Below, one piece after another: positions 1-55,918 of a DNA stretch of 64,000 bases. Positions within the stretch are counted from its first letter, which is position 1. Each line of letters starts with the position of its first letter. Below the pieces are notes generated by a model, which was not told the origin of the DNA, did no database searches, and saw nothing but the letters and a program-made list of their open reading frames with translations. The position numbers were made by a program, and so were the translations under genes. The stretch covers positions 1 through 64,000 of IMG/VR virus record IMGVR_UViG_3300037504_000201; one strand, 5' to 3'. This DNA is from a virus (taxonomy: Duplodnaviria; Heunggongvirae; Uroviricota; Caudoviricetes).

Positions 1-1
1 A

Positions 2-1678
2 GCCCTTTTTCAGCCCGCCACGTGTCGTTACGCCCACGAGATGATTTCGTGGATGAAAAAGGGCTACCCCGGCATGGAGATGTGCCTGCAACTTTGCACC
101 GGCGACGGGCACATTCACGATTGCCCATTCCGCCGCCAGTCCAAGCGCAAGGAACCCATCGTCTACGGGCGGCACGAACACCTCGCCTACGGCGTTAGCG
201 TGAGAGACGGGTTCACACTGGGCGTCGTGGACGAACTGCCGCTCAAGGCGTTTATCCGTGAGCGCAAGATCGGGCACAAGCAGATCGACGAGGTGCGCGG
301 GAACGGCGGCCCACTAGACGCGCTGTTCGACCGGCTATACAACTTGATAAAATTCCCCGAGTCGTTTGGGGAGGACACGTGGTGGGGGCACCGTCTACTT
401 GATGAGATCGGGCCGATTCTTGACGACGTGTTTGCCGCCGTCGAGGTGGGCCAACTGCCGCTGCCTGAGATTCCGCCATTGTACGAGGCCAAGGATGTGT
501 TCGACGTCCCGGCCTTCTTTTGGGACGATCTATTGAAAAAGCTGTCCCCCGAATACGAGTGCTGGAAGGCAGGCTGGGTCAATTGGGTCCCCCGCGTCAA
601 GGTCAAGCCCGGCGTGGGCTTGCAAATCTTGGGCCGTGAGACGGTGTGGGAGAATCTGCCAGAGGCGCTGGTGGTGCTAGACGCCACCGGGTCCCCCGAG
701 ATATACGAGCATATTTTTAGACGCCCCATCCACAAGATCGTCGCCCCATCGGTCAAGGCGTCCGGGCGCATCTTCCAAGTCGTCCAGCGACTCAACAACA
801 TCACCGCCGTGATGGAGGCGACGGGCGAGGTAGACGACGAAGGGAAGAAACTGTACGCTCCTAAAAAGAACGGCGCCGAGATGCTCAAGTTAGCAGAGAT
901 GATCGCCGGGCACTATGAGCGACCGGGCCTGGTCACGTTCAAAGGATTAAAACGACACGCGCCTGAATGTTTCGGAGGGCGCGTGTTGCATTTTGGCGGA
1001 CTGCGAGGGCGCAACGTGCTAAAAGACGTGGATTGCTTGATCGTCGCCGGCGGGTTCTGCCCACCCATCCTTGCCGTGATGGACGCCTGCGCCGCAATCA
1101 CCGACCGGATGAAGCCATTCTTCGGCTACTCTGGAAGCGACCCGGTCAGCCCCTGGGTGCCCGCCGCCGTGCGCTACGTGACCAAGGACGGCTCGTGGGC
1201 ATGGCGTTACGTATCGGGATTTTGGAACGACCCCGACCTGCGCGCGTTCCTTGAGCAGTTCCGCCAGGCCGAGCTGGTGCAGTCCATTCACCGCTCACGC
1301 ATCAACTCGCGCCCAGAAAGCGACCCGGTGGATGTGTGGGTGCTGACGTCCATTCCGACCCAAGTCGAGCTGGACGGTGTGTATCAGTGCATCTCAGAGT
1401 CGCATCTATTCCCCAAGCGTGACACCGAGACGCACGAGGGTGTGTACTGGCCCCACTGGCTAAAGATCAAGCCAAAGCTGGACGAGCTGTGGGCGGCGGG
1501 CAGCGCGTGGGTAGACGCAGAGATGCTAGCCGGGTGGACGGGCGTGCAAGTTGAGACGGTGCGCTCTCAAAAGTGGCTTTCGTCCATCGCCGACTATGAA
1601 ACCGAGCGCTGGATTCTCAAGGACAAGCAGATCGGCAACGGACGACCACGCCTGGGGCTGCTGGCGGTGGAGAGTTAA
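2..1678 (+). CDS. hypothetical replication-module protein (5' end lies outside window)
   Basis: Long ORF whose frame is open to the window edge. Strand-like motifs VVLDATG and LIVAGG. No family recognised. Confidence 0.5.
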   Translation, partial: ALFQPATCRYAHEMISWMKKGYPGMEMCLQLCTGDGHIHDCPFRRQSKRKEPIVYGRHEHLAYGVSVRDGFTLGVVDELPLKAFIRERKIGHKQIDEVRGNGGPLDALFDRLYNLIKFPESFGEDTWWGHRLLDEIGPILDDVFAAVEVGQLPLPEIPPLYEAKDVFDVPAFFWDDLLKKLSPEYECWKAGWVNWVPRVKVKPGVGLQILGRETVWENLPEALVVLDATGSPEIYEHIFRRPIHKIVAPSVKASGRIFQVVQRLNNITAVMEATGEVDDEGKKLYAPKKNGAEMLKLAEMIAGHYERPGLVTFKGLKRHAPECFGGRVLHFGGLRGRNVLKDVDCLIVAGGFCPPILAVMDACAAITDRMKPFFGYSGSDPVSPWVPAAVRYVTKDGSWAWRYVSGFWNDPDLRAFLEQFRQAELVQSIHRSRINSRPESDPVDVWVLTSIPTQVELDGVYQCISESHLFPKRDTETHEGVYWPHWLKIKPKLDELWAAGSAWVDAEMLAGWTGVQVETVRSQKWLSSIADYETERWILKDKQIGNGRPRLGLLAVES

Positions 1679-1766
1679 CACGGTTCCGTGTTAATCAATT
1701 TGAGATAATTGATTGTCTTAAAATATAATAATAATGTTTTAAGCCAATCAATTAAGTCAAATTGAA
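1678..1766. repeat. AT-rich composite palindromic element, copy 1
   Basis: TAACACGGTTCCGTGTTA palindrome, then left arm AATCAATTTGAGATAATTGATT, an AT-rich spacer and right arm AATCAATTAAGTCAAATTGA. TTGAGA-18-TATAAT on the + strand (1700-1729). Confidence 0.8.
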
Positions 1767-1779
1767 CAAGGAGAAGACC

Positions 1780-1995
1780 ATGCTATTGATAATCTTGGCC
1801 CTACTATCCCCCATCGTCCCGCCCAATCAGCCCCCACTGGACGACATCGCGTGCATCGTTGGCGGGGAGGCGTCGCACTGGGACGCACAAGTTTTTATCG
1901 CCACCCAACTCATCCATGATCACGAACGCGGCGTTACTTGCGCGACCGCTGGTATGGCTGGCGTTGCGGGTCTGAGCAGGCCGAGCGCGCGGTGA
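1780..1995 (+). CDS. hypothetical small protein with hydrophobic N-terminus
   Basis: ATG at residue 7 of the tracked ORF with RBS AAGGAGAAG. Downstream of element copy 1. Confidence 0.5.
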   Translation: MLLIILALLSPIVPPNQPPLDDIACIVGGEASHWDAQVFIATQLIHDHERGVTCATAGMAGVAGLSRPSAR

Positions 1996-2155
1996 GGCTG
2001 GCGCTGGCTTACTACCCGTTACACTCACACTGCCGGTTCGTCGGAAGCGAGGCCGACGCCGTCACGTGGCGCGCGTGTGGTTGGATTGACGGTGAGGCCG
2101 ACTTGGTGTTTCGCGGCCCAGTTCTGGCGTTTGGATGTGAATAGCAAGCAATTGC

Positions 2156-2184
2156 TTGACATATTCTAGAATGTGTTATATAAT
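2156..2184 (+). promoter_or_regulatory. sigma70-type early promoter class A, copy 1
   Basis: TTGACA-17-TATAAT with the palindrome ATTCTAGAAT in the spacer and CAATTG just upstream. Confidence 0.7.
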
Positions 2185-2230
2185 CTAATCAAGTTAGTAA
2201 ACAACAGATGCGAGATTGAAGGAGACACAA

Positions 2231-2713
2231 ATGAAGCGCACGCAAGATCAAATCAACCAGATGACCAAGCAAGAAAAGATTGACGCCGCGATTGCGACGA
2301 TCCGCAAGCAGTATACCAGCGGAGAACTTACCTTCGAGCGTTTTGACCGGGCTTTTAACAACATTGAGCGCGCTGCCAAGATGATGGGTTGCGAGTTCAA
2401 CCACACCCGCCGCGAGAACGAAGTGCGCTATACCGAGGCGTGCGGGACAGTTGAGGCAGAGGACGGCACAGAGATTAAAATGACCGTCCAGCATGTCAAC
2501 ATCGACCCCGAACGCGCCAGGGCGATATTTGAGACGGGGCATGACGAAGGCGACTGGGGCTGGAAGCACAAGTCTTGGTATTGCCGAGACGAGCAAGAAC
2601 TGAGAGAAACGCAGGCAGCCGCCCGGTTTTACTATGGGTGGAAGGATGGATCGGAAAAGATCACGCCCATCGGCACCGGCGCATTTTGGTACGATGCGCG
2701 ATACGCTTGCTAA
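2231..2713 (+). CDS. hypothetical protein
   Basis: ATG with RBS GAAGGAGA. First gene after promoter A1. Confidence 0.6.
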   Translation: MKRTQDQINQMTKQEKIDAAIATIRKQYTSGELTFERFDRAFNNIERAAKMMGCEFNHTRRENEVRYTEACGTVEAEDGTEIKMTVQHVNIDPERARAIFETGHDEGDWGWKHKSWYCRDEQELRETQAAARFYYGWKDGSEKITPIGTGAFWYDARYAC

Positions 2714-2766
2714 TCGCAATTGAATCGGGGCGGCCTAACCAGCCGCCCCAGAAAGGATTAGAGACG

Positions 2767-2949
2767 ATGAAACAACAACCTAGCATTGATGAAATGAAGA
2801 GGATATGGCACTATCTAAACATCGGTTTGTCGCCAAGGCAGATAGCTGAAAAGATGGAGGCCGCCGGGTACGACTATCTGTGGTCGCTGGACGTTATAGG
2901 CAAAGAGATTGACGATGCCTATAGCGTGGCGCTTGGGAGCGTGCGATGA
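2767..2949 (+). CDS. small helix-turn-helix DNA-binding protein
   Basis: 60-aa ORF from an internal Met. LSPRQIAEKM resembles an HTH. Confidence 0.45.
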   Translation: MKQQPSIDEMKRIWHYLNIGLSPRQIAEKMEAAGYDYLWSLDVIGKEIDDAYSVALGSVR

Positions 2950-3024
2950 ACACAGAGCGAGTACTACCCAACGGAATGGACGAGATCGTCAATCGGCTAA
3001 TCGAGAGTAATTTACAGCAATTAC

Positions 3025-3053
3025 TTGACATATTCTCGATTATGCTATATACT
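3025..3053 (+). promoter_or_regulatory. sigma70-type early promoter class A, copy 2
   Basis: TTGACA-17-TATACT. Near-identical to the copy at 2156, preceded by CAATTA. Confidence 0.65.
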
Positions 3054-3089
3054 ATCTATAGATTGATAGAATGATGGAGGGAGACACCA

Positions 3090-3398
3090 ATGTATTACAT
3101 CAAGCAGGTTGAGGGCGAGCTAGCAGACGCAGCCAAGTCCATTCGCGCCGCTGTCAAAGCCAAAGACTTTGACCGGGCGCGTGAGATTTGGCGCGATGTG
3201 ACCGGTGAGGACGATAAGGATGAGTCGTGGTTTCGCTACAATGCGGCTCATTACATCGCTTGCCGGTCCGGTCTCACCGTCAATGACTGGCACCTGCTAT
3301 ACGAGCGGTGCAGCGACGAAGAGATGCGAGCCAAGGCCGCCGCTCGATTGGCAGAGCGCAAGGTCGGCGGCAAGTGGGCCGTCGAGTACACGTATTAG
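3090..3398 (+). CDS. hypothetical protein, tandem paralog 1
   Basis: 102 aa with RBS GGAGGGAG. Paralogous to 3408-3716. Confidence 0.65.
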   Translation: MYYIKQVEGELADAAKSIRAAVKAKDFDRAREIWRDVTGEDDKDESWFRYNAAHYIACRSGLTVNDWHLLYERCSDEEMRAKAAARLAERKVGGKWAVEYTY

Positions 3399-3407
3399 GA
3401 GGCTTCA

Positions 3408-3716
3408 ATGTTCTACATCGAGCAGACTGAAGGCACACGCGTCACCGCCGCTAACGACATCCGTCTGGCGGCTGAGCTTGGCGAATTCGCCCGCGCCCGC
3501 GCGATTTTTGAGCGCGTGACCGGCGAGCGGATGCCAAGCGCGACGGATGACGCCTGGTGGGCTGAAGCCGCGCCAATCGCCATTCAACGTTTTGTCCCCC
3601 GCCACATCACAGACACTTACCCGATGTGGCGCGAGGAATATTTCAGCGCCCGCGCCGCCGCCGACCACGCAGAGCGTGAGTTGGGCGGACGGTGGGCCGT
3701 TCGATTTGGATACTAG
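3408..3716 (+). CDS. hypothetical protein, tandem paralog 2
   Basis: 102 aa with RBS AGGAGG. Shares its N- and C-terminal motifs with 3090-3398. Confidence 0.65.
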   Translation: MFYIEQTEGTRVTAANDIRLAAELGEFARARAIFERVTGERMPSATDDAWWAEAAPIAIQRFVPRHITDTYPMWREEYFSARAAADHAERELGGRWAVRFGY

Positions 3717-3726
3717 GAGGGAGACG

Positions 3727-4092
3727 ATGCAGAAGATTTATTTAATCCGTGGCTGGCACAAGCTAGATTTGAATGTGCCGGATGACGTACCGGACGATTG
3801 GCAGATTTGGAACGCTGCCCGCCCGTTCCCCGCCCACAAGACGTGGCAAGGCGACTTTGTCCATGGTGTCTTTTACGGCGCCATTGACCCACAAGGCGAC
3901 TTCGGACAAGAGTACATCGAGCGTGCTCAAGAGCTGGATGCCAGCGTCATTGAATGGAAGGCTGAAGATGACGTATGGGCCTATGGGGAGATGATTTGCG
4001 CCAAATACGGGCGTGAGTTGGACGGGTTCACATTCGACCAGATCGCCGAAAGCTATGCCGGTTGGTTGCGGCGGCAAGAGGAGGGAAGATGA
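3727..4092 (+). CDS. hypothetical protein
   Basis: Internal Met with RBS AGGAGGGAG. Confidence 0.55.
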   Translation: MQKIYLIRGWHKLDLNVPDDVPDDWQIWNAARPFPAHKTWQGDFVHGVFYGAIDPQGDFGQEYIERAQELDASVIEWKAEDDVWAYGEMICAKYGRELDGFTFDQIAESYAGWLRRQEEGR

Positions 4093-4394
4093 AGTGGTAT
4101 ATTGGCTTCACCTTCGCCGACACCCGCGCATATCTCGACCAGCGCGGCATAGACGCAAGCCGCGTCAACATCGAGCGCTCGACGCGCTACCTTGAGTGCT
4201 TGGTGGCGCTGGCGATTCAGCATCAGTGGCCCCACGCGGGCTATCAGTGCAACGATGGACCGAGCGGGCGAACGCTCGAGATCGCGGGCGACGTAGGCGA
4301 CCCCACGTCCATTGTCGAGCGCGTCAAGGCGCGGCTCGGGTGGCCGGTGGACGATTACGGACAGGTGGCGCGATGCCAGAACGATCCGGCATAA
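4089..4394 (+). CDS. hypothetical protein
   Basis: ATGA overlap with the upstream gene. RBS AGGAGGG. Confidence 0.5.
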   Translation: MKWYIGFTFADTRAYLDQRGIDASRVNIERSTRYLECLVALAIQHQWPHAGYQCNDGPSGRTLEIAGDVGDPTSIVERVKARLGWPVDDYGQVARCQNDPA

Positions 4395-4924
4395 TCGCCT
4401 TCACCTACGCCTGGCGCCTTGTCGGGCCGACCCACCCGCGTCACTTGTGGCCAGGCGACCAACGCCCGGTATCCACCCAGTTCGTCGTCTACGGTGGGCT
4501 ATCGTTCCACACCGACCGCGACGACGCGCCGGGCCGGGTATGGATGCCGCACGTCATGGCGGTAACGGCAGAGGCGTTTTACCGTCACGCCTGGCGCGAC
4601 CGCAAGCCATTCCACGTCAACACCCACGTTGATTTGGAGGGCAAGTACACGCTCCACCCCTATTCGCTCGTCGCCGGCCTGGTCGTGTTGCTCGACTTTG
4701 ACAAAAACGGCGTGAACGACGTATGGGCGGACGTGATAGTCAGCAGGCCCGGCGACATCGAGTCGCTGGGTAACGAGATGGACGAAACGCTTGACTTTAT
4801 GCGAATGAGTCAAGCGGACAAGCAGCCGCTAGGTCAGTTCAGTTGGGGCGCCATCGTGCAAAGAGTGAGCGACGTGACGTTCCAATATGACGGCCCGGCG
4901 GCAGCGGCACAAGAGGCTTTTTAA
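4373..4924 (+). CDS. hypothetical protein
   Basis: Internal Met overlapping the upstream stop. Confidence 0.45.
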   Translation: MPERSGIIAFTYAWRLVGPTHPRHLWPGDQRPVSTQFVVYGGLSFHTDRDDAPGRVWMPHVMAVTAEAFYRHAWRDRKPFHVNTHVDLEGKYTLHPYSLVAGLVVLLDFDKNGVNDVWADVIVSRPGDIESLGNEMDETLDFMRMSQADKQPLGQFSWGAIVQRVSDVTFQYDGPAAAAQEAF

Positions 4925-4938
4925 GAAGGAGATAAACA

Positions 4939-5211
4939 ATGTTTACGAGGGTAATCGCGGATGAAAATGGTCCAGTTTACTTGCCGTATGAATTTAGCGG
5001 CGCATGGACTGGCGAAGAAAAGCAGATCGTCAAAAGCACGCTGGACAAGCACGTGCCAGAGCACGTCTACGCCAGCTTTAACAACTGGCACATCGCCAAG
5101 TATCACGACGGGCTTTTTACCGCCCGTCGCGCAACGTGGACAATGGGCGGCATCACGGGCGAGACGGCGCAAGAGTTAACTCAAAAGATTGCGGAGTACT
5201 ATCATGATTGA
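4939..5211 (+). CDS. hypothetical protein
   Basis: RBS AAGGAGA. Confidence 0.6.
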   Translation: MFTRVIADENGPVYLPYEFSGAWTGEEKQIVKSTLDKHVPEHVYASFNNWHIAKYHDGLFTARRATWTMGGITGETAQELTQKIAEYYHD

Positions 5212-5821
5212 ATTCGAATCAGACACCCAGACCAATAGAGTGCGGCTCGAGTGGGCCGCGCGGCGCATCGCGTCCAATCATGACAAGGCCCCCGCGTCCC
5301 CGCTCTACGCGCTATCTAAGCTCGTCATCGCCCCGCGCTGGATTGGGCGAGGCGTGCGAGCACCGGGATTGCGCCGCTGGAAGCGTGGCGAGCTGATCGA
5401 GGTCGTAGGCGCGCTGTTGCGCCGCGACAAGGCGGCGGCGCGTGAGGAATGGGGCGACGTGGGCTATTACGTCGCCCAATCGTGGGGCTGGCTGTGGCGC
5501 GCCTATGTGGCCGTCACGCCCAACGACGTCATCGAGGCCGCGTGCCGCAAGTTCGAGGCGCGCGCTGCGACAAAGCGAGTGGTACCCGTCGGACGTCGGC
5601 GGGTGATCAGTGCAAGGAGGGGTGAATCTATGTTACAGTTTCCACTTTTTGGGTTTGGCGATGCGAGCGTCTCCCGCTCGCCTGACGGGTGCACTGTTTA
5701 CACACAAAGAATGGGCATTGTATTGCGCACGATTACTTATTCGCCCAGTGGCGCGTACATAAGTACCGTTGATGTAAACACTGCCACAAAAGAGACGATA
5801 ATGGTGCAGCTCAATGAGTAG
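5204..5821 (+). CDS. MazG-like nucleotide pyrophosphohydrolase domain protein (putative)
   Basis: EL-IEVVGALL...EEWGDVGYYVA follows the EExxE...EexGD pattern of MazG/HisE. Confidence 0.4.
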   Translation: MIEFESDTQTNRVRLEWAARRIASNHDKAPASPLYALSKLVIAPRWIGRGVRAPGLRRWKRGELIEVVGALLRRDKAAAREEWGDVGYYVAQSWGWLWRAYVAVTPNDVIEAACRKFEARAATKRVVPVGRRRVISARRGESMLQFPLFGFGDASVSRSPDGCTVYTQRMGIVLRTITYSPSGAYISTVDVNTATKETIMVQLNE

Positions 5822-6149
5822 AATCAGCAACGAATGGGATGAGAATAGCGTGGCTGTCGAGGCGTTGATAATCTTCGCCAAGCTTCGCCGCGCCAAATGT
5901 TACCCCGATTGCCACAAAGTCGGCAAGCCCGAGATCGTCGCCGAGCGTCAGCACCTCGATGGAATGTCATACGAGGTCGTCATCCCCTACGAGGTGGCGC
6001 CGAACACCTACGGACCTGACCGGCTGGCCCGCTACCGGTTTGGCCCACGCTGTGATTACTGTCTTGGCACCGGCTTTAGCTCATCCGGCTCGACCGACGG
6101 CGTGACGTGCCGTGCGTGTCAGGGCTGGGGCGTAAAGCCGCCAGTGTAG
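5814..6149 (+). CDS. hypothetical protein with C-terminal CxxC-x-CxxC
   Basis: CDYC and CRAC motifs. Confidence 0.5.
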   Translation: MSRISNEWDENSVAVEALIIFAKLRRAKCYPDCHKVGKPEIVAERQHLDGMSYEVVIPYEVAPNTYGPDRLARYRFGPRCDYCLGTGFSSSGSTDGVTCRACQGWGVKPPV

Positions 6150-6158
6150 GAGGGAGAA

Positions 6159-6872
6159 ATGCCTAAACGTAAACGACCCACTTTGCAGCAACTCGAGGCC
6201 CATTCCGCGCCGATTATGAGCGCGATGGGCACAACGCTCACCGACACCGAGCGTGCAATTTACTGGCACGTGCGCAAGGCCGGCCCCAGCACGTCGCAAG
6301 ACCTGCTGGACGCCAGAAACGAGATCGGCGCGTGCGAAAGCGGTATTCGCAACGCACTGACTGACCTGGTCAAGCTAGGCCTGCTCACGCGTCGCCATGG
6401 AACATACCCTTACGTCCATGAGGCCGTGACGCACTTCCCGCTGGACGACGCGCAGAAGCTGTGCCAAGACGAGCGCGAGGTGGCGCGATGTCTGTCCGGC
6501 TGCGGAACCGACCGGTTCATTAGCCTGGCGCTGGATTTCTTCTGGCGCGCCAAGCCGGTATTAAGGATGGGGAAAGGATTGAGCGGTAGATACTTGGTAT
6601 ACGGCGTGAGCTACAAAGGCGGGTTCAAGGAACGGGTGTCCGTCTCGTTGGTTGAGCAGCACGAATACAAGCCAGACTACCATGTCCATATTAGCCCCGC
6701 CTGGTTTGAAAATATCGGTGCTGATGCACCGCTGATCAGCTTGCTCGAAGCCGACTTGGGCGCCTACCCGTGGGCTTATACCTACTGGGTGCGGCGCAAC
6801 GAGGGAAAGCTACCGCGCTACCTACTGCCCGGTCAAGAGGCGGCGATAATGGAGGAGCTAAACGATGCCTAA
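6159..6872 (+). CDS. winged-helix DNA-binding protein (putative regulator)
   Basis: RBS AGGAGGGAG. The N-terminal 90 aa are wHTH/MarR-like. Confidence 0.45.
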   Translation: MPKRKRPTLQQLEAHSAPIMSAMGTTLTDTERAIYWHVRKAGPSTSQDLLDARNEIGACESGIRNALTDLVKLGLLTRRHGTYPYVHEAVTHFPLDDAQKLCQDEREVARCLSGCGTDRFISLALDFFWRAKPVLRMGKGLSGRYLVYGVSYKGGFKERVSVSLVEQHEYKPDYHVHISPAWFENIGADAPLISLLEADLGAYPWAYTYWVRRNEGKLPRYLLPGQEAAIMEELNDA

Positions 6873-7167
6873 ACCGATTTTGTGGCACGCCTACGAAACT
6901 GACACGCGCACCGGCGCGCGCCGTCGCTTGACCGAGCGCCCAATGGCGTGGGCGTGGTGCGCGCGGCTGTTCGAGAACTTCAAGTCCTCCAACTCCAACA
7001 ACGGCGTCACCATCATCGACGTCGAGCCGGAGGGCGGGTGGCGCGTCATCGAACACGAGCCAATTATGGTAATTTTGCAAGCGTTCCGCGATGGACAGTT
7101 GGACATGCGCGGCGCGCTACAGGCGATAAAGCAGGTCGGGCAATGTGACCCGACGGATGAGCTGTAA
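6865..7167 (+). CDS. hypothetical protein
   Basis: RBS GGAGGAG. Overlaps the upstream stop. Confidence 0.55.
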   Translation: MPKPILWHAYETDTRTGARRRLTERPMAWAWCARLFENFKSSNSNNGVTIIDVEPEGGWRVIEHEPIMVILQAFRDGQLDMRGALQAIKQVGQCDPTDEL

Positions 7168-7174
7168 AGGAGAG

Positions 7175-7396
7175 ATGATGAAACCAAAGATTAAAAAAGA
7201 AGTCGCCGTGTCTTGGGTGTATAAGCCAGTGGGGATAATCTATTTGTACGCCACGAACGATGCCGCCAACGAGCTATCTGAGTTTGGTGATTTATTCCAG
7301 CGAGATTCAGGCGAGTGGCGCATGATCGTTGATCCAAGATTTGATTTTGATGAAGTGCTTGCGTACATCGAGCGCTACGGAGAAGATAAGAAATGA
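7175..7396 (+). CDS. hypothetical protein
   Basis: Internal Met with RBS AAGGAGAG. Confidence 0.5.
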   Translation: MMKPKIKKEVAVSWVYKPVGIIYLYATNDAANELSEFGDLFQRDSGEWRMIVDPRFDFDEVLAYIERYGEDKK

Positions 7397-7674
7397 ACCT
7401 ACCAACCGACAAAACCAAGCTGGACCACCTCGTCGCCGCCGTGCTGCTCAAGCTAGGCGATGCGACCGAGGCTCAAGAGGTAGTGGACGAGCTGGGGGCG
7501 ATGGGCTACGACGTGAGCGAATTCTCCAAACATGCTTGCGGGCACTGCCTGGCCCGCTTGCGCCGTGGGCACCCGGCAATCGCAGACCGCTACCGGGGCA
7601 CAAGTAATGTGTGGTCCCTCACGCGCATCGGGCGCGCGCGGGCCGAACGGTGGGCAGAGAGGATAGAGGTGTAA
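7393..7674 (+). CDS. hypothetical protein
   Basis: ATGA overlap (translational coupling). Confidence 0.5.
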   Translation: MNLPTDKTKLDHLVAAVLLKLGDATEAQEVVDELGAMGYDVSEFSKHACGHCLARLRRGHPAIADRYRGTSNVWSLTRIGRARAERWAERIEV

Positions 7675-7675
7675 T

Positions 7676-8278
7676 ATGGAATACATTGATAATCTGATGG
7701 ACAAGCTGGAAGTGGTATTCGCCCCACCGTGGAAGCGTATACCTGGTAACACAATCGTCGCCGGCGATTACATCGACGTGAGCGTCAAAGGCCAATCCGG
7801 GAAGGTCGTCATTAACTTGTACTGTCGCCCTGACTGGCGCCTGCTCTATGAACGCTACGGACAAAGCGTGCTGGACGCGCGGGGAGACGAGCAATCCAAG
7901 ACGATAGCCGTGACGTGGGTGTACCCAAGTGCTGACGCAGTCGATCCGCAAGACGTCAGTCGGCGCGTGGAGTTCTTTCTGCGCGAGTTTGGCGTTGCGC
8001 ACCTGGTTGACCTCGACCTATGGGACGCGGCGGCGCTGTTGGTCGGCAACGGGCCGAAGTGGTGGGCGTACACAGAGATCCCGCTTGTCGAACGAGAGAT
8101 CAAGGACGGAGTGGTCACGGCGCACTACCGGCGCAACGATGAGGGTGAGGTGGTAGGATTCTTGCACGTCAAGCGCGCGTCCATTGACTTACCAGACGGC
8201 GCCGACAATATGTCGCTGACGTGGTCGGGCACGCCGGAAGAGATCAAGTCAGTCTGGGAGACGCTAGACTTCGCATAG
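7676..8278 (+). CDS. hypothetical protein
   Basis: 200-aa ORF. Start is 2 nt after the upstream stop. Confidence 0.55.
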   Translation: MEYIDNLMDKLEVVFAPPWKRIPGNTIVAGDYIDVSVKGQSGKVVINLYCRPDWRLLYERYGQSVLDARGDEQSKTIAVTWVYPSADAVDPQDVSRRVEFFLREFGVAHLVDLDLWDAAALLVGNGPKWWAYTEIPLVEREIKDGVVTAHYRRNDEGEVVGFLHVKRASIDLPDGADNMSLTWSGTPEEIKSVWETLDFA

Positions 8279-8289
8279 ATATATGACTT

Positions 8290-8350
8290 TGTTGATTCTC
8301 CTAAAACATTATTATTATATTTTAAGAGAATCAATTATGTCAAATTGAAT
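8290..8350. repeat. AT-rich palindromic element, copy 2 (right arm only)
   Basis: Arm GAATCAATTATGTCAAATTGAAT. TTGACA-18-TATAAT on the minus strand, so it points antisense here. Confidence 0.7.
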
Positions 8351-8373: not shown

Positions 8374-10149
8374 ATGACAATCACTCTACGCCCTTATCAA
8401 CAAGACGCCGTCGACGCCGCCTGGGTGCGTTTTGCAACCGACCAGAGCACGCTTTTCGCAATGGCGACGGGTTGCGGCAAGACCGCCGCCGCCTGCGGGA
8501 TGGGTGCCAGGCTGGTCGAGGAATACGGTCGGCCTATCCGCACGCTGCTCTTGTGCGACCAGCGGCACCTCACCAAGCAAGCGGTGAAGCACGTCGCCAA
8601 ACACTGGCAACACGTGCTGGGCACGCCGGGTGTGGTGATGGGCAAGCTGGACGAGTACAAACGCGACTTTGTGGCGTGCACCGTCCAGTCGCTCGTGTCG
8701 AACGGGCGCATGGCGCGCCTGCTGAGCAAGCCGGTTGACTTTGTCATCCTCGACGAGTGCCACCACGCTGTGGCACCCACCTGGCAACAGTGCATCGAGG
8801 AGATCAAGGACGCCAACCCCGACGTTAAAATCCTGGGTCTGACCGCCACGCCCCGCCGCACTGACGACGTGGGGCTTGAAAAAGTCTTTGACTCCGTCGC
8901 TTGCCGGTTGAGCATCGCCAAGGCGATTGAGATCGGCGCGCTGTGCCCGTTCGAGGCGCTGGGCTTCCGGCTTGAGCAAGCCGACCTCGACGCGCTGCGC
9001 CAGAACGAGGACGGAGAGTTCATCGACCAAGAAGAGGTGGACCGGATCCTTGAGGCCGCCAACGCCGAAGAGATTGTCATTGAGAAATGGGAAGAGTACG
9101 CGGCAGGACGCCCCACGCTCGTCTTTACCTCGACCGTGGCCCAAGCCTACCGGCTGGCGGCAAAGTTCCACGCCGCCGGGCACAAGTTCTATGCCATTGA
9201 AGGTAACACGCCCCAAGAGGAACGGGACCGGCTGGTCAAGGCCTACCGTGCTGGGGACATTGACGGCATCGTCAATGTGCGTGTGTTCGCCGAGGGGTTC
9301 GACGCCCCTTGGACCGAGTGCATCGCGTTCCTGGCCCCCACCGGCTCAGACCTCGTCTACGTGCAAAAGGTCGGGCGTGGCCTGCGACTCTACCCCGGCA
9401 AGGTCAAGGCGCTGATCCTCGACTTTGTGCCCGCCGGCGAGCGCGACTTCCGTATGGCCGGCGACCTACTGGAAGGCAAGCCCAAGGCTCAGCGCAAGGC
9501 CGAGAGCAAGGCCGCCGACGTAGGTGTGCTGTTCGGCCTGGGCATCAACTCAAAAGGCGAGGGCATCGACGCCGACCCCGACCAAGTGCGAATGATGGTG
9601 CTGGACTATCTGACCAACGGCGCGCGCGACTTGCCCTGGACGCTGTACAAAGACGACGGGCTGGCGACGTGCGCGATCTCGTTTAGTCGCACGCTGGCCG
9701 TCATCCTCAAGGGAGACGGCGACACCCCGCCCGAGGTCGCCGCCCGGCTTGATAAAGCGGACGGGGTCCGGGCGAACGGGGAATGGCAACCCAACTACGA
9801 CCCCGTCTACAAGGCGCTGTTGCGCCAGGACCACGGCAGCTTTAAGGTGCTGGAAGTGCGCGCGATAAAAGAAGAGGGACGCCGCACGCGATACGTCGTG
9901 ACGCCGTTGGGCCGGTCAGAGGATTGGGAGACGGCACGGGACATCGCAGAGCGGCACGCCGACAAGTGGGAAGACAAGCGCGTCGCCCGGCGCCGCAAGC
10001 AGTGGCGGGGTAAGCCGATGTCAGACAAGCAAATCCCGCTGTTGAAAAAGCTGCACATCTACTCGCCAGACCTAGACCGCGGTCAAGCGAGCCAGCTCAT
10101 TGACCACACATTCACCCGCCAGCGCCTTCAGCGCTACGGATATTTGTAA
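8374..10149 (+). CDS. SF2 DEAD/DEAH-box DNA helicase
   Basis: Motif I AMATGCGKT, motif II ILDECHH, motif III TATPRR. RBS AGGAGGGAG. Confidence 0.85.
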   Translation: MTITLRPYQQDAVDAAWVRFATDQSTLFAMATGCGKTAAACGMGARLVEEYGRPIRTLLLCDQRHLTKQAVKHVAKHWQHVLGTPGVVMGKLDEYKRDFVACTVQSLVSNGRMARLLSKPVDFVILDECHHAVAPTWQQCIEEIKDANPDVKILGLTATPRRTDDVGLEKVFDSVACRLSIAKAIEIGALCPFEALGFRLEQADLDALRQNEDGEFIDQEEVDRILEAANAEEIVIEKWEEYAAGRPTLVFTSTVAQAYRLAAKFHAAGHKFYAIEGNTPQEERDRLVKAYRAGDIDGIVNVRVFAEGFDAPWTECIAFLAPTGSDLVYVQKVGRGLRLYPGKVKALILDFVPAGERDFRMAGDLLEGKPKAQRKAESKAADVGVLFGLGINSKGEGIDADPDQVRMMVLDYLTNGARDLPWTLYKDDGLATCAISFSRTLAVILKGDGDTPPEVAARLDKADGVRANGEWQPNYDPVYKALLRQDHGSFKVLEVRAIKEEGRRTRYVVTPLGRSEDWETARDIAERHADKWEDKRVARRRKQWRGKPMSDKQIPLLKKLHIYSPDLDRGQASQLIDHTFTRQRLQRYGYL

Positions 10150-10155
10150 TTCAAT

Positions 10156-10184
10156 TTGACACAATTGATTTTTTGTTGTATGAT
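10156..10184 (+). promoter_or_regulatory. promoter within truncated element copy 3
   Basis: Arm TCAATTTGACACAATTGATT gives TTGACA-17-TATGAT pointing at 10208. Confidence 0.6.
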
Positions 10185-10207
10185 AGATTCTAGGAAGGAG
10201 ACAGTCT

Positions 10208-19416: not shown

Positions 19417-19506
19417 TACACGGTTCCGTGTTACTTAGCCGACTTAGTTTTAGCTCTTAAAACATATATTATATATTTTAAGAGAATCAATTATGTCAAA
19501 TTGATT
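19417..19506. repeat. AT-rich palindromic element, copy 4 (hairpin-extension type)
   Basis: TACACGGTTCCGTGTTA, then CTTAGCCGACTTAGTTTTAGCTC, spacer and arm GAATCAATTATGTCAAATTGATT. The TTGACA-18-TATATAAT it carries is on the minus strand. Confidence 0.75.
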
Positions 19507-19908: not shown

Positions 19909-20216
19909 TGATGACCAATAAAGAGCTACAAATAAATGTCAAGCGCGCGCTTGAACTGGCGCTTGAGCTTGAGCAAGCCGCGGCCGACGTGGCACAAGCG
20001 CTCGACGCATTCAATGAGGCAAGTTGCGAGCTTGGCGCCGCAAATCAGCGCCGACACGAACTGGCAATGGAGCTTCAACAGGTCGCGGACTTGAAGGGGC
20101 ATGTGCCCGGCGCGTCGGTGTGTATCCAGACCGGTGACGACATCGTGGTCACCATCACGCGCGTGCAAGGCGAACCGGTCAAGGCGTCGCGCCGCAAGCT
20201 ATACCGCGCCACTTGA
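19908..20216 (+). CDS. hypothetical protein
   Basis: ATGA overlap. Last gene of the + block. Confidence 0.5.
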   Translation: MMTNKELQINVKRALELALELEQAAADVAQALDAFNEASCELGAANQRRHELAMELQQVADLKGHVPGASVCIQTGDDIVVTITRVQGEPVKASRRKLYRAT

Positions 20217-20240
20217 CACGGGCGCGCGCCTGCGATACAA
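20212..20240 (+). promoter_or_regulatory. sigma70-type promoter
   Basis: TTGACA-17-TATACAAT-like (TACAAT). The -35 overlaps the stop codon of 19908-20216. Confidence 0.5.
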
Positions 20241-20246
20241 TAGAAG

Positions 20247-30358: not shown

Positions 30359-30451
30359 AATCAATTTGAGATAATTGATTGTCTTAAAATATATAATATA
30401 TGTTTTAAGAGCTAAAACTAAGTCGGCTAAGTAACACGGAACCGTGTACAC
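30359..30451. repeat. AT-rich palindromic element, copy 5 (reverse-complement of the copy-4 type)
   Basis: Arm AAATCAATTTGAGATAATTGATT, spacer, then GAGCTAAAACTAAGTCGGCTAAG and TAACACGGAACCGTGTA. Confidence 0.75.
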
Positions 30452-41837: not shown

Positions 41838-43265
41838 CTAAGCGCTGCACTTGAGTGCGGCGGCTCGCCAAGGCTCCATGAGCTTGCCGCCCACGCGCCT
41901 GCGAATCTGGAACTCGACCTTGTTGATCCCGGTATTGGAGTCGTTGTAGCGCACCACGGACAATCCGGCGCGCTCGACGATGATATACCCGGCCAGGTCG
42001 ATAAACACGATGGGGTAAGCGCTTGCCGCGATGTCGGGCATCGCCTCGGTCTCGGCGACCTGGAACCCGAACAGCCGGTCACCGGATTCGGCGGTGTCAA
42101 AGTAGAAGCGACCGAACCCGTCTTGCCAAAGCTCGATCTCGGCGGCGGTGTCAGAGTTCATCAGCCACACCGCGCGTCTGTCTGCGCGATATTGGCTGGC
42201 GATCTGGCGCCGAAGCTGCTTTGTGGTCGTGATCTGGATGTCATCCGCCACGCCCGTATCCAGCTCGGTGATCCCATCTTCCAGCGTGGTCCCGCCGGGA
42301 ACGATACCGCGCGGCTCACCCGCAACGCCCGTCCCGGCCACAAAGGCGTCGTCCTCGTCAACCGCCAGCGTGGTCGAAACCTGTGCAGAGAAGACGTCCT
42401 CGATGTTCTGCCCGTCCTCAAGGAAAGACACGGACATCGGGACCTTGTAGGTGTACAGCTCGACGGGAATCTCTTCAGTCCCGAAGGTTAGGTTGGTCTC
42501 TTCGGGGCTTTGCGTCTCGTCGCCCCACTTGCCGCGCAGGGCCGTTGGGTAGCGCTCGTCGGTGCTGGCGCCGGTGAGCTTGATCCAGCGCATAGAGCTG
42601 GACACGGTCTGAACGACCGTGGCGCCGTAGCGCCGGACGGCGGTCAGCCCAGCCATGCGAGTGATAATCCGGTCGGCGATTTGCGGAGGGACCGCGTAGC
42701 CGCCCAGAATGTCAACGCCCTCGACCATCGTCGCTTTGACCTCAGAGATGGAGTAGCCGGACTTGACCATGTCCAACACGGTGTCCGGGCTCCAGTATTG
42801 AGAATACAAGCTCTTCAGATCGTAACCCTTGCGTGCGGCGGTCTCGCCCCAGCGCATGTAAGCGGTGAACGCTTGCTTTTGGTCCCACAGCAATTGGCGC
42901 CAGTCGGCGCTCTTGGTGCTGCCGTAGGCCTCGCCCATCACTAGGTCGGTGTGCTCGTCCACGTCGCCGTAGCGCAACACCTGGATGGTCTTGTAGATTT
43001 TGCTCTTGTCGGCGCCTTTGTTCTCGCCTTCCGCCGGTTCGCCACCCATCGGCAATCGGTCGCCGCCGGCGGGTTGCGCGTCGCTCTCGGTCAGCTCGGC
43101 GTAGCTGTCAAGGCTCTTGAGCGCTTCGATTTGCGCCTTGAACTTGTCCAGTTGAGGTTGCACCTCTTCCTGGAACGCCTTTAAGCTCATCTCGCCAGCG
43201 GACATCTTGGCCCGGCTGTCGTCGATGAGTGCCTTCATCTTTTTCTGCAACTCTTGAATCGTCAT
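41838..43265 (-). CDS. major capsid protein (HK97 fold) with N-terminal coiled-coil delta/scaffold domain
   Basis: 475 aa. N-terminal 100-aa coiled coil. Position after the protease. RBS TAGGAGAG. Confidence 0.65.
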   Translation of the reverse strand: MTIQELQKKMKALIDDSRAKMSAGEMSLKAFQEEVQPQLDKFKAQIEALKSLDSYAELTESDAQPAGGDRLPMGGEPAEGENKGADKSKIYKTIQVLRYGDVDEHTDLVMGEAYGSTKSADWRQLLWDQKQAFTAYMRWGETAARKGYDLKSLYSQYWSPDTVLDMVKSGYSISEVKATMVEGVDILGGYAVPPQIADRIITRMAGLTAVRRYGATVVQTVSSSMRWIKLTGASTDERYPTALRGKWGDETQSPEETNLTFGTEEIPVELYTYKVPMSVSFLEDGQNIEDVFSAQVSTTLAVDEDDAFVAGTGVAGEPRGIVPGGTTLEDGITELDTGVADDIQITTTKQLRRQIASQYRADRRAVWLMNSDTAAEIELWQDGFGRFYFDTAESGDRLFGFQVAETEAMPDIAASAYPIVFIDLAGYIIVERAGLSVVRYNDSNTGINKVEFQIRRRVGGKLMEPWRAAALKCSA

Positions 43266-46145: not shown

Positions 46146-46210
46146 CGTAAAATAAAAGCGGTTCGCTAATGAGTCAAGCAGTCTTGCTTGACTCATTAGC
46201 GAACCGCTTA
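46146..46210 (-). terminator. rho-independent terminator (25-bp perfect stem)
   Basis: AAGCGGTTCGCTAATGAGTCAAGCA-agac-TGCTTGACTCATTAGCGAACCGCTT, then UUUAUUUUA on the minus-strand RNA. A GGCC-UUCG-GGCC tetraloop hairpin just upstream. Confidence 0.7.
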
Positions 46211-46486: not shown

Positions 46487-46516
46487 AGTATACACTATCC
46501 CGTGTATGGTTGTCAA
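46487..46516 (-). promoter_or_regulatory. leaderless promoter class C, copy 1, with TACAC-N6-GTGTA operator
   Basis: TTGACA-ACCATACACGGGATAGTG-TATACT-AGAT-ATG. Confidence 0.7.
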
Positions 46517-47143: not shown

Positions 47144-47164
47144 AATATCCCCTTCGTATAGATA

Positions 47165-47233
47165 TCTGACTTTATCGATTCTCCTAAAACATTATTATTA
47201 TATTTTAAAAGAATCAATTATCTCAAATTGATT
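47165..47233. repeat. AT-rich palindromic element, copy 6
   Basis: CTGACTTTATCGATTCTCCTAAAAC, spacer, arm GAATCAATTATCTCAAATTGATT. TTGAGA-18-TATAAT on the minus strand points at 46523-47143. Confidence 0.75.
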
Positions 47234-49770: not shown

Positions 49771-49952
49771 TACTCTTCGCCTTCCTCCGCCTCGACCACG
49801 TAATACCACGGCGTCTGCTTGGCAATTTCGTGCGGCGTGTCGCTGGGGACGATGACGGAGGCGATAACGCCCTCTTCTAGCTCTTTACCTTGAACCTCGT
49901 AAAGCTTGCGGTCGCCGTGTTTGTCCGGGTCATAGTCGATGTATCTGGGCAT
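49770..49952 (-). CDS. small acidic protein
   Basis: TAATG coupling to the portal stop, with RBS GGAGG. Confidence 0.4.
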   Translation of the reverse strand: MPRYIDYDPDKHGDRKLYEVQGKELEEGVIASVIVPSDTPHEIAKQTPWYYVVEAEEGEE

Positions 49953-52396
49953 TAGTCACTGCCTCCAAATATTTCATCTAGGGAATCGACTTCTAAATAT
50001 TCGGCAAGAGCTTGTCGCTGTTCATTCGAACCATAATGATATACCCTAAAGGTATCGGCCTTAAATTCGAGATCTTTGGTTAGTGAGTACTCACGAAGGC
50101 CATACCTAGCAAGGTCGCCCTTCGTCACTCTATCCACAAACCCATACCTATAAGCATCCTTCATGTCCTTAAAACCATTAACCAATAAATCGTTCGCCCT
50201 TTGACCACGCTTACTCTCCAAGAACGCAGAGCGCATGGTTACATGGTGCCCAAGCTCGTGAGAGAAGATATACCTTGAAGACGATATAAAATCAGGATTT
50301 ATATGTATTGATTGCTCTTGCGGATCGTACACTCCTGCAGCATCATAATCGCCTACGTGGGAACGCCAAGGATTATCTGGCGAAAGTTGCGCGCGGATCT
50401 TTGTTGGCTCCGTCGTAATCCGCTTCAGCCCTTCCAAGTGTCGCGGCTGAATCTCATCTCGCACCATCATATCAACAACGACTTTGCGCGTCTTTTCATC
50501 AAGGCCCTCTACCAACTTGCGCCCAGGCCCAACCTCAAAGTATCGCGGATTGACACGTCCGCTTCCACGCATTGAACCCGGAGCACTCCCGCCGCGTTTC
50601 CCAGGGCGCCCAGCATGCCCCCAGTTGCCACTACCTGGGCCGCCTTTCACGTTCTCATCCCACGTCGGCGCGTTCATCAACTGCGCCCACTCGTCACTCA
50701 CCCGCGCAGCGCCCGCCACGGCCCGCTCGGCGTCGGTCTGCGTGATGGTCAACGTATCGTTGGCGAATAACGTGTCTCGGTCGGGCACAGGCATAAACTC
50801 GACGACCTCCTCCGGCTCCGACTCATTGTAGCGCGCCAAGAGCAGCGCCTCGGCGGTGGCGTCCTTGACCTCTGTGATAGGCAGATCGACCGGCGTCGCC
50901 GCAATCTCACGCAGGCCGGCAAACACCTCAAGCACGCCTTGGTCGCTCACGCCATCGGGTAGCGCAGTCAGCGCCGCTTCGGTCAGTGATTTTAGCCAGG
51001 CGGGGATGTCGTGGCACACGAACGGCGCCGACGACGGGTGCCGGCCAGACTGAGCGAAGCGCAACGCCTTGCGCTCCCACTTGCCCAGCTCGTCAAGCGC
51101 CTTGTTCTCTTCTTCTGCGGGCGGCTCTTCTTGCGTCTGTTCCTCGCCTTGCTGCCCCATCGATGCCAGCTCCGGTATCAATGGGATAAAGCGGGTGGGC
51201 AACGTGTCGCAGTACTCTGCCACCGGGCCGGCCTCGATAGGATCCAGGCCCTGCTTGGCCCGCGCCTCGTTGACCGTCATGTCCGGCGCGTATGTCGTAT
51301 AATCTTGACGGTCCTCATCACGTCGGGCGGGGCGAAAGTCCTCGTACTGACAAATGAATTGCTCGCCGTAGGTGGGCCGAATGAACTGCGTGGTGATGTC
51401 CCCGGCTAGAAGCTGCGCAATTGGGTAAACGTGCCACTCGGTCACCATGTCAAGGGACGCATACATCGAGGCGTAGGTGGTGTTCTGCGCCCCCAGCGCC
51501 TCCGACCAGCCCAGCACCTCCATAAACTCGCGGCGGTTGGAATCGCTCAACTGGACGATAGCCAGGTCGTCCAGGTTCATCTCCATCGCCTTGACGTCCA
51601 TATCGCCCGCGCGCATCACCAGCGCCGCCCGGTCCACCACCCGCAGCTCTTTGATAATCTCGTCGCGGATAGCAAAAAACTGCGAGCGCGTGACCGGCTT
51701 TTTGATGTTAAAGATGGTGGTGGGGGAGGCGTTCCTTGGCCCGAAAAAGTTCTCACGGAATCTCCGCTGGCCTAACTCAGTCTTGATGGTGCTCTCAAGC
51801 GCGCTTACCCCGCTCATCCCGTCCAATGGGTCGAGGATGTTGGGCATGCGACACCAAATGACTTGCGTGTGAGGAATCAGATAGGGCCGCCCGTCGCGCC
51901 CAGAGAACTCGTAGCCCAACACCGGCGTCTTGGTGTCGGGGCCTGGGATAGGCTGCACCGACATCGGCGGCAAGGGCCACAATGACTCCGGTTCAAGATT
52001 ATCATCCAGCCCTACAAAGATGAACGCGCTACCGCGAATCGGCAGACATAGCCCAATGAACCAGCGGAAGAACACGCCCGACATGAATGAGTTGGGGTCG
52101 TGCAAGAGAAGCTCGAACGGGTGATTCTCGACCGGCGTCGGCTTGTCCTCGGGCTTGGCACGCTCATAGATGCCGGGGATATAGCTGGAGAGAATCTTGG
52201 CGATGCCGTTGGCTGCTGTGTAGACGGGCGGGAGCTTGAGCGCCTTGCGCTGCAAGCTCTCGTGACTTGCGCCGGGCGCGGCACGTGATATGCCGCCGCC
52301 CATCGAGATAGGCAGATCGGGCACGGCGGGGTAAGGCTCACGTTCCCCAGGCCGTTCAATGCTCAGCTTTCCGACCCCCGGAATTCTGAATCTCAT
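49952..52396 (-). CDS. portal protein with C-terminal extension containing Gly-rich motif and HExxH zincin-like domain
   Basis: N-terminal 480 aa is portal-like. Then GGPGSGNWGHAGRPGKRGGS. Then a 230-aa domain with IFSHELGHHV. Confidence 0.65.
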   Translation of the reverse strand: MRFRIPGVGKLSIERPGEREPYPAVPDLPISMGGGISRAAPGASHESLQRKALKLPPVYTAANGIAKILSSYIPGIYERAKPEDKPTPVENHPFELLLHDPNSFMSGVFFRWFIGLCLPIRGSAFIFVGLDDNLEPESLWPLPPMSVQPIPGPDTKTPVLGYEFSGRDGRPYLIPHTQVIWCRMPNILDPLDGMSGVSALESTIKTELGQRRFRENFFGPRNASPTTIFNIKKPVTRSQFFAIRDEIIKELRVVDRAALVMRAGDMDVKAMEMNLDDLAIVQLSDSNRREFMEVLGWSEALGAQNTTYASMYASLDMVTEWHVYPIAQLLAGDITTQFIRPTYGEQFICQYEDFRPARRDEDRQDYTTYAPDMTVNEARAKQGLDPIEAGPVAEYCDTLPTRFIPLIPELASMGQQGEEQTQEEPPAEEENKALDELGKWERKALRFAQSGRHPSSAPFVCHDIPAWLKSLTEAALTALPDGVSDQGVLEVFAGLREIAATPVDLPITEVKDATAEALLLARYNESEPEEVVEFMPVPDRDTLFANDTLTITQTDAERAVAGAARVSDEWAQLMNAPTWDENVKGGPGSGNWGHAGRPGKRGGSAPGSMRGSGRVNPRYFEVGPGRKLVEGLDEKTRKVVVDMMVRDEIQPRHLEGLKRITTEPTKIRAQLSPDNPWRSHVGDYDAAGVYDPQEQSIHINPDFISSSRYIFSHELGHHVTMRSAFLESKRGQRANDLLVNGFKDMKDAYRYGFVDRVTKGDLARYGLREYSLTKDLEFKADTFRVYHYGSNEQRQALAEYLEVDSLDEIFGGSD

Positions 52397-55696: not shown

Positions 55697-55726
55697 AGTA
55701 TACACCATACCGTGTATGGTTGTCAA
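55697..55726 (-). promoter_or_regulatory. leaderless promoter class C, copy 2
   Basis: TTGACA-ACCATACACGGTATGGTG-TATACT-TGTAAT-ATG. Confidence 0.7.
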
Positions 55727-55888: not shown

Positions 55889-55918
55889 TAAAAAAAGCCC
55901 CGCCGGGGGTGGCGGGGT
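55889..55918 (-). terminator. rho-independent terminator
   Basis: On the minus RNA: CCCCGCC-ACCCCC-GGCGGGGC, then UUUUUUUAUU. Confidence 0.7.

Follow-up and report, generated by a model that had tools for sequence, protein, structure and literature searches.

The window analysed here is 64 kb of a novel 77,750-bp metagenomic phage contig with 58% GC (positions 1 to 64,000 of IMG/VR record IMGVR_UViG_3300037504_000201). It contains three short promoter-like sequences that resemble each other and are called class A. Copies 1 and 2 stand on the plus strand, 869 bp apart, at the head of a block of small orphan genes. Copy 3 stands on the minus strand between the genes for the large terminase (59057-60667) and the portal protein (49952-52396), in the region where the first-pass annotation had placed it. 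The three copies and the genes behind the first two are as follows.

2140-2197, plus strand: class A copy 1, with the core TTGACA-TATTCTAGAATGTGTTA-TATAAT at 2156-2184 (-35 at 2156-2161, 17-bp spacer at 2162-2178, -10 TATAAT at 2179-2184)
3004-3055, plus strand: class A copy 2, with the core TTGACA-TATTCTCGATTATGCTA-TATACT at 3025-3053 (-35 at 3025-3030, -10 TATACT at 3048-3053)
58863-58925, minus strand: class A copy 3, with the core TTGACA-TATTCTAGAATGTGTGG-TATACT at 58876-58904 (-35 at 58904-58899, -10 TATACT at 58881-58876, with a TGn extended -10)
2231-8278, plus strand: presumed early transcription unit of about 20 small genes, with copies 1 and 2 at its head
2231-2713, plus strand: gene for a 160-aa protein
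2767-2949, plus strand: gene for a 60-aa protein, modelled as three helices
3090-3398 and 3408-3716, plus strand: tandem paralogues of 102 aa each (38% identity, E 1e-17)

Three homologous promoter cassettes

The three class A sequences are homologous, with 77-86% identity over about 52-58 nt; the stretch opens about 16 nt upstream of the -35 and ends beyond the -10 hexamer. The spacer is 17 bp long in all of them. Copy 1 matches the consensus hexamers at 12 of 12 positions, and copies 2 and 3, which have TATACT in place of TATAAT, each match at 11 of 12. The first-pass annotation described nearly identical copies with a perfect consensus. The kinship is real, but the copies are less uniform than that, and only copy 1 is perfect. 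Copies 1 and 3 have 22 identical bases in common, CTTGACATATTCTAGAATGTGT.

Sequences of this kind are far more frequent than chance would allow. The window contains seven perfect TTGACA-N16-18-TATAMT sites, compared with 0.02 expected from shuffles, and six matches to the 17-mer TTGACANATTCTAGAAT with at most three mismatches, compared with 0.13 expected. The three promoter-like sequences are present where they were first noticed.

Their placement also follows a common pattern. All three lie in AT-rich intergenic islands of the genome, and the distance from the end of the -10 to the ATG of the next gene is 46-48 nt in each case, with a GGAG-type ribosome-binding site in front of the ATG. Transcription would start near 2191 at copy 1, near 3060 at copy 2 and near 58869 at copy 3. 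Copy 2 overlaps the 3' end of a 42-codon remnant of an open reading frame (ORF) at 2946-3074.

A CAATTG palindrome just upstream of the -35 had also been described as a common feature. Only in copy 1 does it adjoin the -35; the corresponding bases of copy 2 are CAATTA, and in copy 3 the motif lies 11 nt further upstream. As a candidate for a second operator it was dropped, being out of register and no more frequent in the window than expected (19 occurrences compared with 17.4).

Class A sequences are very probably real promoters of the sigma-70 type. Their sequence and position support the view that they are consensus housekeeping-sigma promoters, positioned to drive the genes behind them. 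In the proposed mechanism, the host RNA polymerase with its housekeeping sigma factor would read three homologous cassettes, each about 55 bp long. As the -35 matches the consensus, the -10 nearly does and the spacer is 17 bp, they should need no phage factor and fire upon entry of the DNA into the cell.

A different view is that the real host has another promoter grammar, in which class A does not function, or that the functional elements are the 74-nt palindromes found at eight places in the window, class A being incidental. In favour of this, the palindromic element upstream of copy 3 has an arm of its own that reads TTGACA-18-TATATA. Even so, this explanation is very improbable. Copies 1 and 2 have no palindromic element adjoining them; the hexamers, the 17-bp spacing, the constant distance to the ribosome-binding site and the strong use of Shine-Dalgarno sequences all fit a host of the sigma-70 type; and seven perfect sites where 0.02 are expected cannot be incidental.

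On the plus strand, no terminator is predicted between copies 1 and 2, nor before the palindromic element at 8276-8349. For this reason the two copies would act in tandem as promoters of the orphan-gene block, which is 6 kb long and lies upstream of the replication genes. None of the approximately 20 genes in 2231-8278 has a match in PHROG or Pfam, and the block precedes a module with helicase, primase and RNA ligase genes. The tandem genes that begin at 3090 are indeed paralogous, as first proposed. The proposal that copies 1 and 2 drive the first early genes can be kept in the sense that they head this block, but 2231-2713 is not the first gene on the plus strand. To its left lie 74-1678, 1780-1995 and an uncertain ORF at 1938-2144.

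The dyad in the spacer

The spacers of copies 1 and 3 contain the perfect 10-bp palindrome ATTCTAGAAT. The first-pass annotation had given this palindrome to all three copies, but copy 2 has ATTCTCGATT instead. The palindrome is the core of a longer dyad, ACATATTCTAGAATGTGT, which pairs at 8 of 9 positions over 18 bp, begins at the fourth -35 base and ends at position 15 of the spacer. It occupies 2159-2176 in copy 1 (perfect core at 2163-2172) and 58884-58901 in copy 3 (perfect core at 58888-58897). These two copies are identical over the whole dyad, while their flanks and their -10 hexamers differ. At the corresponding position of copy 2 (3028-3045), the left half-site is kept, but 3 of the 8 positions in the right half are changed. 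The window holds no further copies of the dyad besides those in copies 1 and 3.

The dyad includes CTAG although the genome avoids this tetranucleotide strongly: the whole window has 75 occurrences, compared with 238 expected from base composition. CTAG is also kept in several ribosome-binding regions, for instance in TTCTAGGAGG at 8349 and 10187.

How unusual the dyad is can be judged by shuffling the spacers while keeping their composition and the hexamers. The 18-bp dyad with one mismatch is reached in 0.5% of shuffles for copy 1 (p = 0.005) and in 0.05% for copy 3 (p = 0.0005). That the 18-bp dyad is an operator is a tentative assignment, at somewhat less than even odds. If it is one, a dimeric phage repressor would bind it at roughly -32 to -15, occlude the polymerase and so end the early burst after the first minutes. 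Copy 2, with its right half-site damaged, would be regulated weakly or not at all.

An operator at this position has precedents. In the Pant promoter of phage P22, the Arc operator is a dyad between -35 and -10, and the bound dimer excludes or stalls the polymerase and shuts off an early burst. Synthetic promoters carry lacO or tetO in the spacer. The likeness to Pant is that a strong promoter has a dyad, here a putative operator, between its two hexamers. The differences are that a protein of the Arc/MetJ type (ribbon-helix-helix, RHH) was not identified in the window and that the operator sequence is unrelated.

Another comparison is with the promoters of anti-CRISPR (acr-aca) operons, which have consensus -35 and -10 hexamers and an inverted repeat inside the core promoter, and on which the matching Aca protein acts as repressor (PMC9410906). 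Class A may work like these promoters, which is not to say that it is one of them. A helix-turn-helix (HTH) gene of the Aca type was not detected in the operon, no homology to known Acr or Aca proteins was found, and a protein encoded behind copy 3 resembles AcrIF11 only at the level of the superfamily. Furthermore, class A would also drive a 6-kb early block and not only a two-gene operon. P22 and anti-CRISPR operons already provide well-known cases of a strong promoter with a dyad in its core, so that little of general value would be learned.

Several results weigh against an operator. The perfect 10-bp palindrome on its own is reached in 7% of shuffles for copy 1 and in 2.6% for copy 3. A more permissive dyad score gives p = 0.03-0.09, and the dyad position of copy 2 is without significance (p = 0.5-0.9). 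Copies 1 and 3 are homologous and so count as roughly one observation. Among the proteins of both units there is no match to an HTH or RHH family, and no repressor was found. The statistical support for an operator is only moderate, and the site is degenerate in copy 2.

The 60-aa protein encoded at 2767-2949 had been put forward as an HTH protein and as the candidate autoregulator. The HTH assignment is not established. Its model has three helices with a predicted local distance difference test score (pLDDT) of 74, and its best Foldseek matches are HTH domains (the DosR C-terminal domain, DesR, a small terminase, Pax and a resolvase), all of them non-significant with E > 2. Pfam and PDB sequence searches with it are empty. 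Its sole homologue is a copy, 90% identical, in the relative L026 described below. It is unlikely to be the regulator.

The same results bear on a simpler explanation. Class A may consist of plain strong promoters without an operator, which are alike only because one cassette was recently duplicated and moved by recombination, the palindrome being an accident of an AT-rich spacer. The frequency of the 10-bp palindrome in shuffled spacers favours this view, as does the failure of the family searches to detect a DNA-binding protein in either unit. Likewise, copy 2 has lost its symmetry and yet kept its hexamers and spacing. A further example is contig L017 (see below), where a promoter cassette of 170 nt is duplicated without an obvious dyad in its spacer.

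A further argument for plain duplicated promoters comes from the one partial relative that was compared, L026, a 1429-bp sequence from sequencing run SRR17165183. It aligns with positions 2582-2770 of the window at 88% identity and with 2744-2974 at 83%. Upstream of the gene for the 60-aa protein, L026 has a 96-aa gene and a single paralogue of the 102-aa family. Downstream of it, an ORF runs for 132 codons, the counterpart of which in the window is the 42-codon remnant. In the window, this remnant loses homology at about 2975-2991 and runs into the class A block that starts at 3004, followed by the two paralogues. The cassette of copy 2 thus lies 10-30 nt past a synteny breakpoint, and L026 has no class A promoter at all. 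Breakpoint and absence together indicate that copy 2 is a recent addition or an exchange point. Since copy 2 stands at a rearrangement junction, class A cassettes might also act as recombination modules.

Such a junction fits a mobile promoter cassette of the kind known as promoter early stem-loops (PeSLs). In T4-type phages these are repeated short cassettes of early promoters among variable orphan genes, where they serve as recombination points (PMC2839356, PMC4122927); repeated promoter/terminator motifs of this kind mediate shuffling (PMC4122927), which is a further point for plain promoters. Class A likewise consists of short repeated promoter cassettes near variable orphan genes, with a synteny breakpoint at copy 2 and a long hairpin element in front of copy 3. 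It differs in having three copies only, two of which (copies 1 and 2) lack an adjacent stem-loop, and in being unrelated to the T4 early promoters; the phage itself is not T4-like. A mobile-cassette origin may account for the decayed dyad of copy 2.

Other observations are harder to explain by plain promoters, beginning with the low p values of the extended dyad. Copies 1 and 3 are identical over the whole dyad and differ in their -10 and flanks. CTAG is retained in the dyad in spite of its avoidance throughout the genome. A promoter on the unrelated contig L020 has an even better palindrome in its spacer, with a second copy nearby. Finally, a dyad in the spacer is also a feature of the class B promoters, each of which heads one of three operons on the minus strand. 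They all have the form TTGACA-N18-TATACT, with the spacer dyad ATACAC-N6-GTGTAT.

62536-62565, minus strand: class B promoter of the operon with ParB-like and methyltransferase genes and the large terminase
55697-55726, minus strand: class B promoter of the operon with dCTP deaminase and the portal gene
46487-46516, minus strand: class B promoter of the operon with the major head protein (41838-43265) and the tape measure protein

In view of these observations, plain promoters without an operator are an unlikely account, though one to be taken seriously. As the late-gene promoters of class B are equally near the consensus, consensus hexamers alone do not mark a promoter as early. In these sequences it is the spacer, and not the near-consensus hexamers, that distinguishes class A from class B.

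The cassette between terminase and portal

Copy 3 has the terminase stop codon 153 nt upstream of it and a palindromic element 43 nt upstream of it. The features in front of it and behind it are as follows.

58947-59020, between terminase stop and copy 3: AT-rich palindromic element of 74 nt, one of eight in the window
58381-58836, minus strand: first gene behind copy 3, encoding a 151-aa protein with a predicted ADP-ribosyltransferase fold
55938-58380, minus strand: rest of the cassette, with seven small orphan genes, including two that are Cys-rich and resemble zinc ribbons
57651-57721, minus strand: type II hammerhead ribozyme between two genes (Rfam RF02276, 41 bits compared with a gathering score of 37, E 3e-6)
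57031-57135 and 56706-56808, minus strand: two copies of a GC-rich structured repeat of about 100 nt, 85-92% identical
55898-55917, minus strand: strong intrinsic terminator that closes the cassette, with seven G-C pairs followed by a T run

From copy 3 to the terminator, this is a cassette of 2.9 kb, with a promoter, eight small genes (from 58836 down to 55938), a ribozyme and a terminator. No terminator is predicted inside it. Each of the GC-rich repeats is followed closely by a ribosome-binding site, that of a small Cys-rich gene. Their predicted structure has several stems and a CCCCC/GGGGG closure, with one compensatory change between the copies. Rfam gives no assignment for the repeats (no match at E <= 1) or for the palindromic elements, apart from spurious miRNA-like hits. 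The repeats could be an unclassified structured RNA or ribozyme.

Relatives show that the place occupied by this cassette is variable. In the terminase relative L014, the portal gene directly follows the terminase gene. In the closest relative, L015, the slot holds 3 kb of different small genes. The contents of the slot suggest that the copy-3 unit is an autonomous cassette with an anatomy like that of a moron. Morons are autonomous units in lambdoid and other temperate phages. As in morons, a promoter, genes and a terminator form a unit between late genes that is missing in some relatives. The copy-3 unit, however, has eight genes and a ribozyme instead of one gene, its promoter is shared with the main orphan block, and there is no evidence for a temperate phage; neither an integrase nor a repressor was found in the window.

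An alternative is that the dyad is the operator of an immunity repressor, the phage being temperate and class A silent in the prophage; class A would then be immunity-controlled early promoters and not lytic-cycle promoters that an early autoregulator shuts off. An operator inside the core promoter is the classic design for immunity repressors, as in lambda PL and PR. The terminase relative L014 is on a contig that carries an integrase, the moron-like anatomy of the copy-3 unit is typical of temperate phages, and 13.7 kb of the source contig lie outside the window. Nevertheless, immunity is an improbable explanation. No integrase, CI/Cro-like protein or other repressor family was found among about 60 window proteins screened, there are only two good copies of the operator, and the layout, with an orphan block, a replication block and a long structural arm, looks lytic.

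The first product of the cassette, the 151-aa protein, belongs to a rare family. Searches of Pfam and PHROGs are empty, and a word-indexed protein search returned only the protein itself. Exhaustive searching of 1.84 billion cluster representatives with HMMER brought up only 17 relatives. The AlphaFold model made with a 13-sequence alignment has a pLDDT of 90.3 and a predicted template modelling score (pTM) of 0.83, and its Foldseek matches are members of the ADP-ribosyltransferase superfamily. The family profile aligns H8 and Y41, which are invariant across 13 homologues, with the H and Y of PARP10 and PARP14. Model and profile confirm an ADP-ribosyltransferase fold of the H-Y (PARP/diphtheria-toxin) clade. 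In this superfamily the fold is a split beta-sheet core for NAD binding, and H and Y make up the NAD-binding motif of the clade. The first-pass annotation had recognised the gene as ADP-ribosyltransferase-like; its start is at 58836 and not, as given there, at 58839.

Promoters in front of homologous genes provide a comparison. Six contexts, including the window, have enough upstream sequence, and in four of them (the window, L017, L020 and L024) the gene is the first behind a consensus promoter.

L017: TTGACA-17-TATAAT, part of a regulatory cassette of 170 nt that is duplicated at 3373-3545 and 5828-5990
L020, 5840-6000: a terminator upstream, then TTGACA-16-TATAAT
L024, 1-132: TTGACA-18-TATAAT

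The cassette of L017, a contig that resembles a plasmid or phage and carries genes for ParM-like, FtsK and methylase proteins, consists of a TTGACA...TGTCAA palindrome, a TTGTATAGATACAA dyad and then the promoter. In L020, the spacer contains the perfect 14-bp palindrome CATAGAATTCTATG (p = 0.006), and the leader contains a near-copy of it that resembles a second operator. In a tblastx comparison that covered L017 and L020, nothing apart from this gene links either contig to the window. Across the contexts the genes next to it are unrelated, and a conserved downstream partner or regulator was dropped as a candidate. The independent recurrence of a strong promoter before the gene, sometimes with a spacer dyad, is the best support for its immediate, controlled expression.

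Phage ADP-ribosyltransferases that reprogram host proteins at the start of infection are known from T4, namely Alt, ModA and ModB. T4 ModA and ModB are early genes read by the host polymerase. These enzymes belong to the R-S-E clade, whereas the present protein is of the H-Y clade, in a family with N or Q at the catalytic position; no sequence homology between the two was found. The ADP-ribosyltransferase-fold protein is probably an effector for host takeover or counter-defence, which would modify or bind a host target early in infection. If the explanation below is correct, its rare family would be a candidate for such an early effector.

Taken together, the best explanation is a family of class A promoters read by the host polymerase, with a dyad operator in the spacer. 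Copies 1 and 2 would serve the orphan block, and copy 3 would drive a self-contained accessory cassette of 2.9 kb with the ADP-ribosyltransferase-fold protein as its first product. The probability of this explanation as a whole is put at about 0.5. The observation from which it started is real but was idealised, and its interpretation is partly supported.

Apart from the weaknesses of the operator, other points count against it. The early timing of class A, which is moderately favoured, is read from the layout of the genes only. Between the terminase gene and copy 3 there is no terminator, so the cassette may also be transcribed late by read-through. In the 151-aa protein, the position of the catalytic Glu is taken by N138, and the family has N, Q, T or S there (the position was assigned by strand register and not by superposition). 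With this Glu replaced, enzymatic activity is uncertain. The pattern resembles that of mono-ADP-ribosyltransferases with a variant H-Y motif, or of inactive PARPs. The 13.7 kb of contig beyond the window also limit this explanation.

If true, it would provide a compact map of the transcription programme for a phage lineage without cultured or annotated relatives. Some side leads are more interesting: the ADP-ribosyltransferase-fold family with its H-Y-N/Q pattern, the cassette that contains a ribozyme, and the class-specific dyads together with the 74-nt palindromes.

Palindromic elements and genome layout

The 74-nt element upstream of copy 3 is one of a set at operon boundaries, which occur in either orientation relative to the genes. 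Four of the copies are adjoined by a free-standing palindrome, ACACGGWWCCGTGT, which is related to the class B dyad.

1693-1766, 8276-8349, 19432-19505, 30359-30432, 47159-47232, 55763-55836, 58947-59020 and 62580-62653: the eight copies of the AT-rich palindromic element
10148-10190: half copy of the element
1678-1691, 19418-19431, 30434-30447 and 55749-55762: free-standing perfect palindrome ACACGGWWCCGTGT

The arms of the element fall into three types, most often AATCAATT-TGACAT-AATTGATT, which is a dyad with a TTGACA in it. Together with a central TATAAT-like run, the arms form promoter-like sites that face each other. A single perfect one, at 8314-8343 on the minus strand, is directed into the orphan block in antisense. 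An ordinary promoter for the gene at 10208, TTGACA-17-TATGAT, is what the half copy at 10148 resembles. As RNA, the element is predicted to fold into a hairpin of about 32 bp with -37 kcal/mol (z = -10). Candidate roles are those of a promoter pair, a protein-binding site or a processing site of the RNase III type.

The palindrome ACACGGWWCCGTGT occurs four times, compared with 0.03 expected, each time beside a 74-nt element. Along with the class B dyad, it suggests a second regulator with sites inside and outside promoters.

A far-reaching version of the explanation preferred above would extend it to the whole phage. All of its programme would run on consensus promoters for the host polymerase, which differ only in class-specific spacer dyads (ACATATTCTAGAATGTGT in class A; ATACAC-N6-GTGTAT, with the free ACACGGWWCCGTGT, in class B), with the 74-nt palindromes as a third component. 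The early orphan block and a mobile counter-defence cassette would be under the common control of class A. The lead gene of this cassette would found an undescribed ADP-ribosyltransferase family of the H-Y-N/Q type that has been coupled repeatedly to strong promoters in unrelated mobile elements, with an operator-like palindrome in the spacer of one of them. The result would be an Acr-like module that fires hard and is then repressed, with a new effector and a regulator that is not of the HTH type. As a whole, this extended picture is unlikely.

The phage has no close relative in the collections that were searched, namely GenBank phages, IMG/VR, and the metagenomes and genomes scanned for patterns. 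Megablast of positions 1-6000 against GenBank phages gave no match. The 17-mer has ten matches in IMG/VR, all by chance in AT-rich contigs, and scans of IMG/VR seeded with the 160-aa protein and with the ADP-ribosyltransferase-fold protein found nothing. A degenerate 21-mer gave two chance matches in metagenome contigs, in DNA of 31% GC, and one match at chance level among 185,579 genomes, in Alicyclobacillus. Terminase homologues are at most 55% identical, and their contigs differ in architecture. The 90% clusters of five window proteins are singletons.

Genes are on the plus strand until about 20.2 kb, and from there to the end of the window they are on the minus strand. The plus-strand genes from 8374 encode a helicase, a conserved phage protein, an RNA ligase and a primase. 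Where the plus- and minus-strand arrays converge, there is an isolated promoter-like site at 20213-20241 (plus strand) that matches the consensus at 11 of 12 positions, TTGACA-17-TACAAT, with a GC-rich spacer.

Another isolated feature is found in the head operon. At 46156-46209 (minus strand), some 280 nt downstream of the class B promoter that spans 46487-46516 and after the first small gene, there is a hairpin with perfect arms of 25 bp and a T-rich tract (CTTTTATTTT). It may be a terminator or an attenuator before the structural genes.

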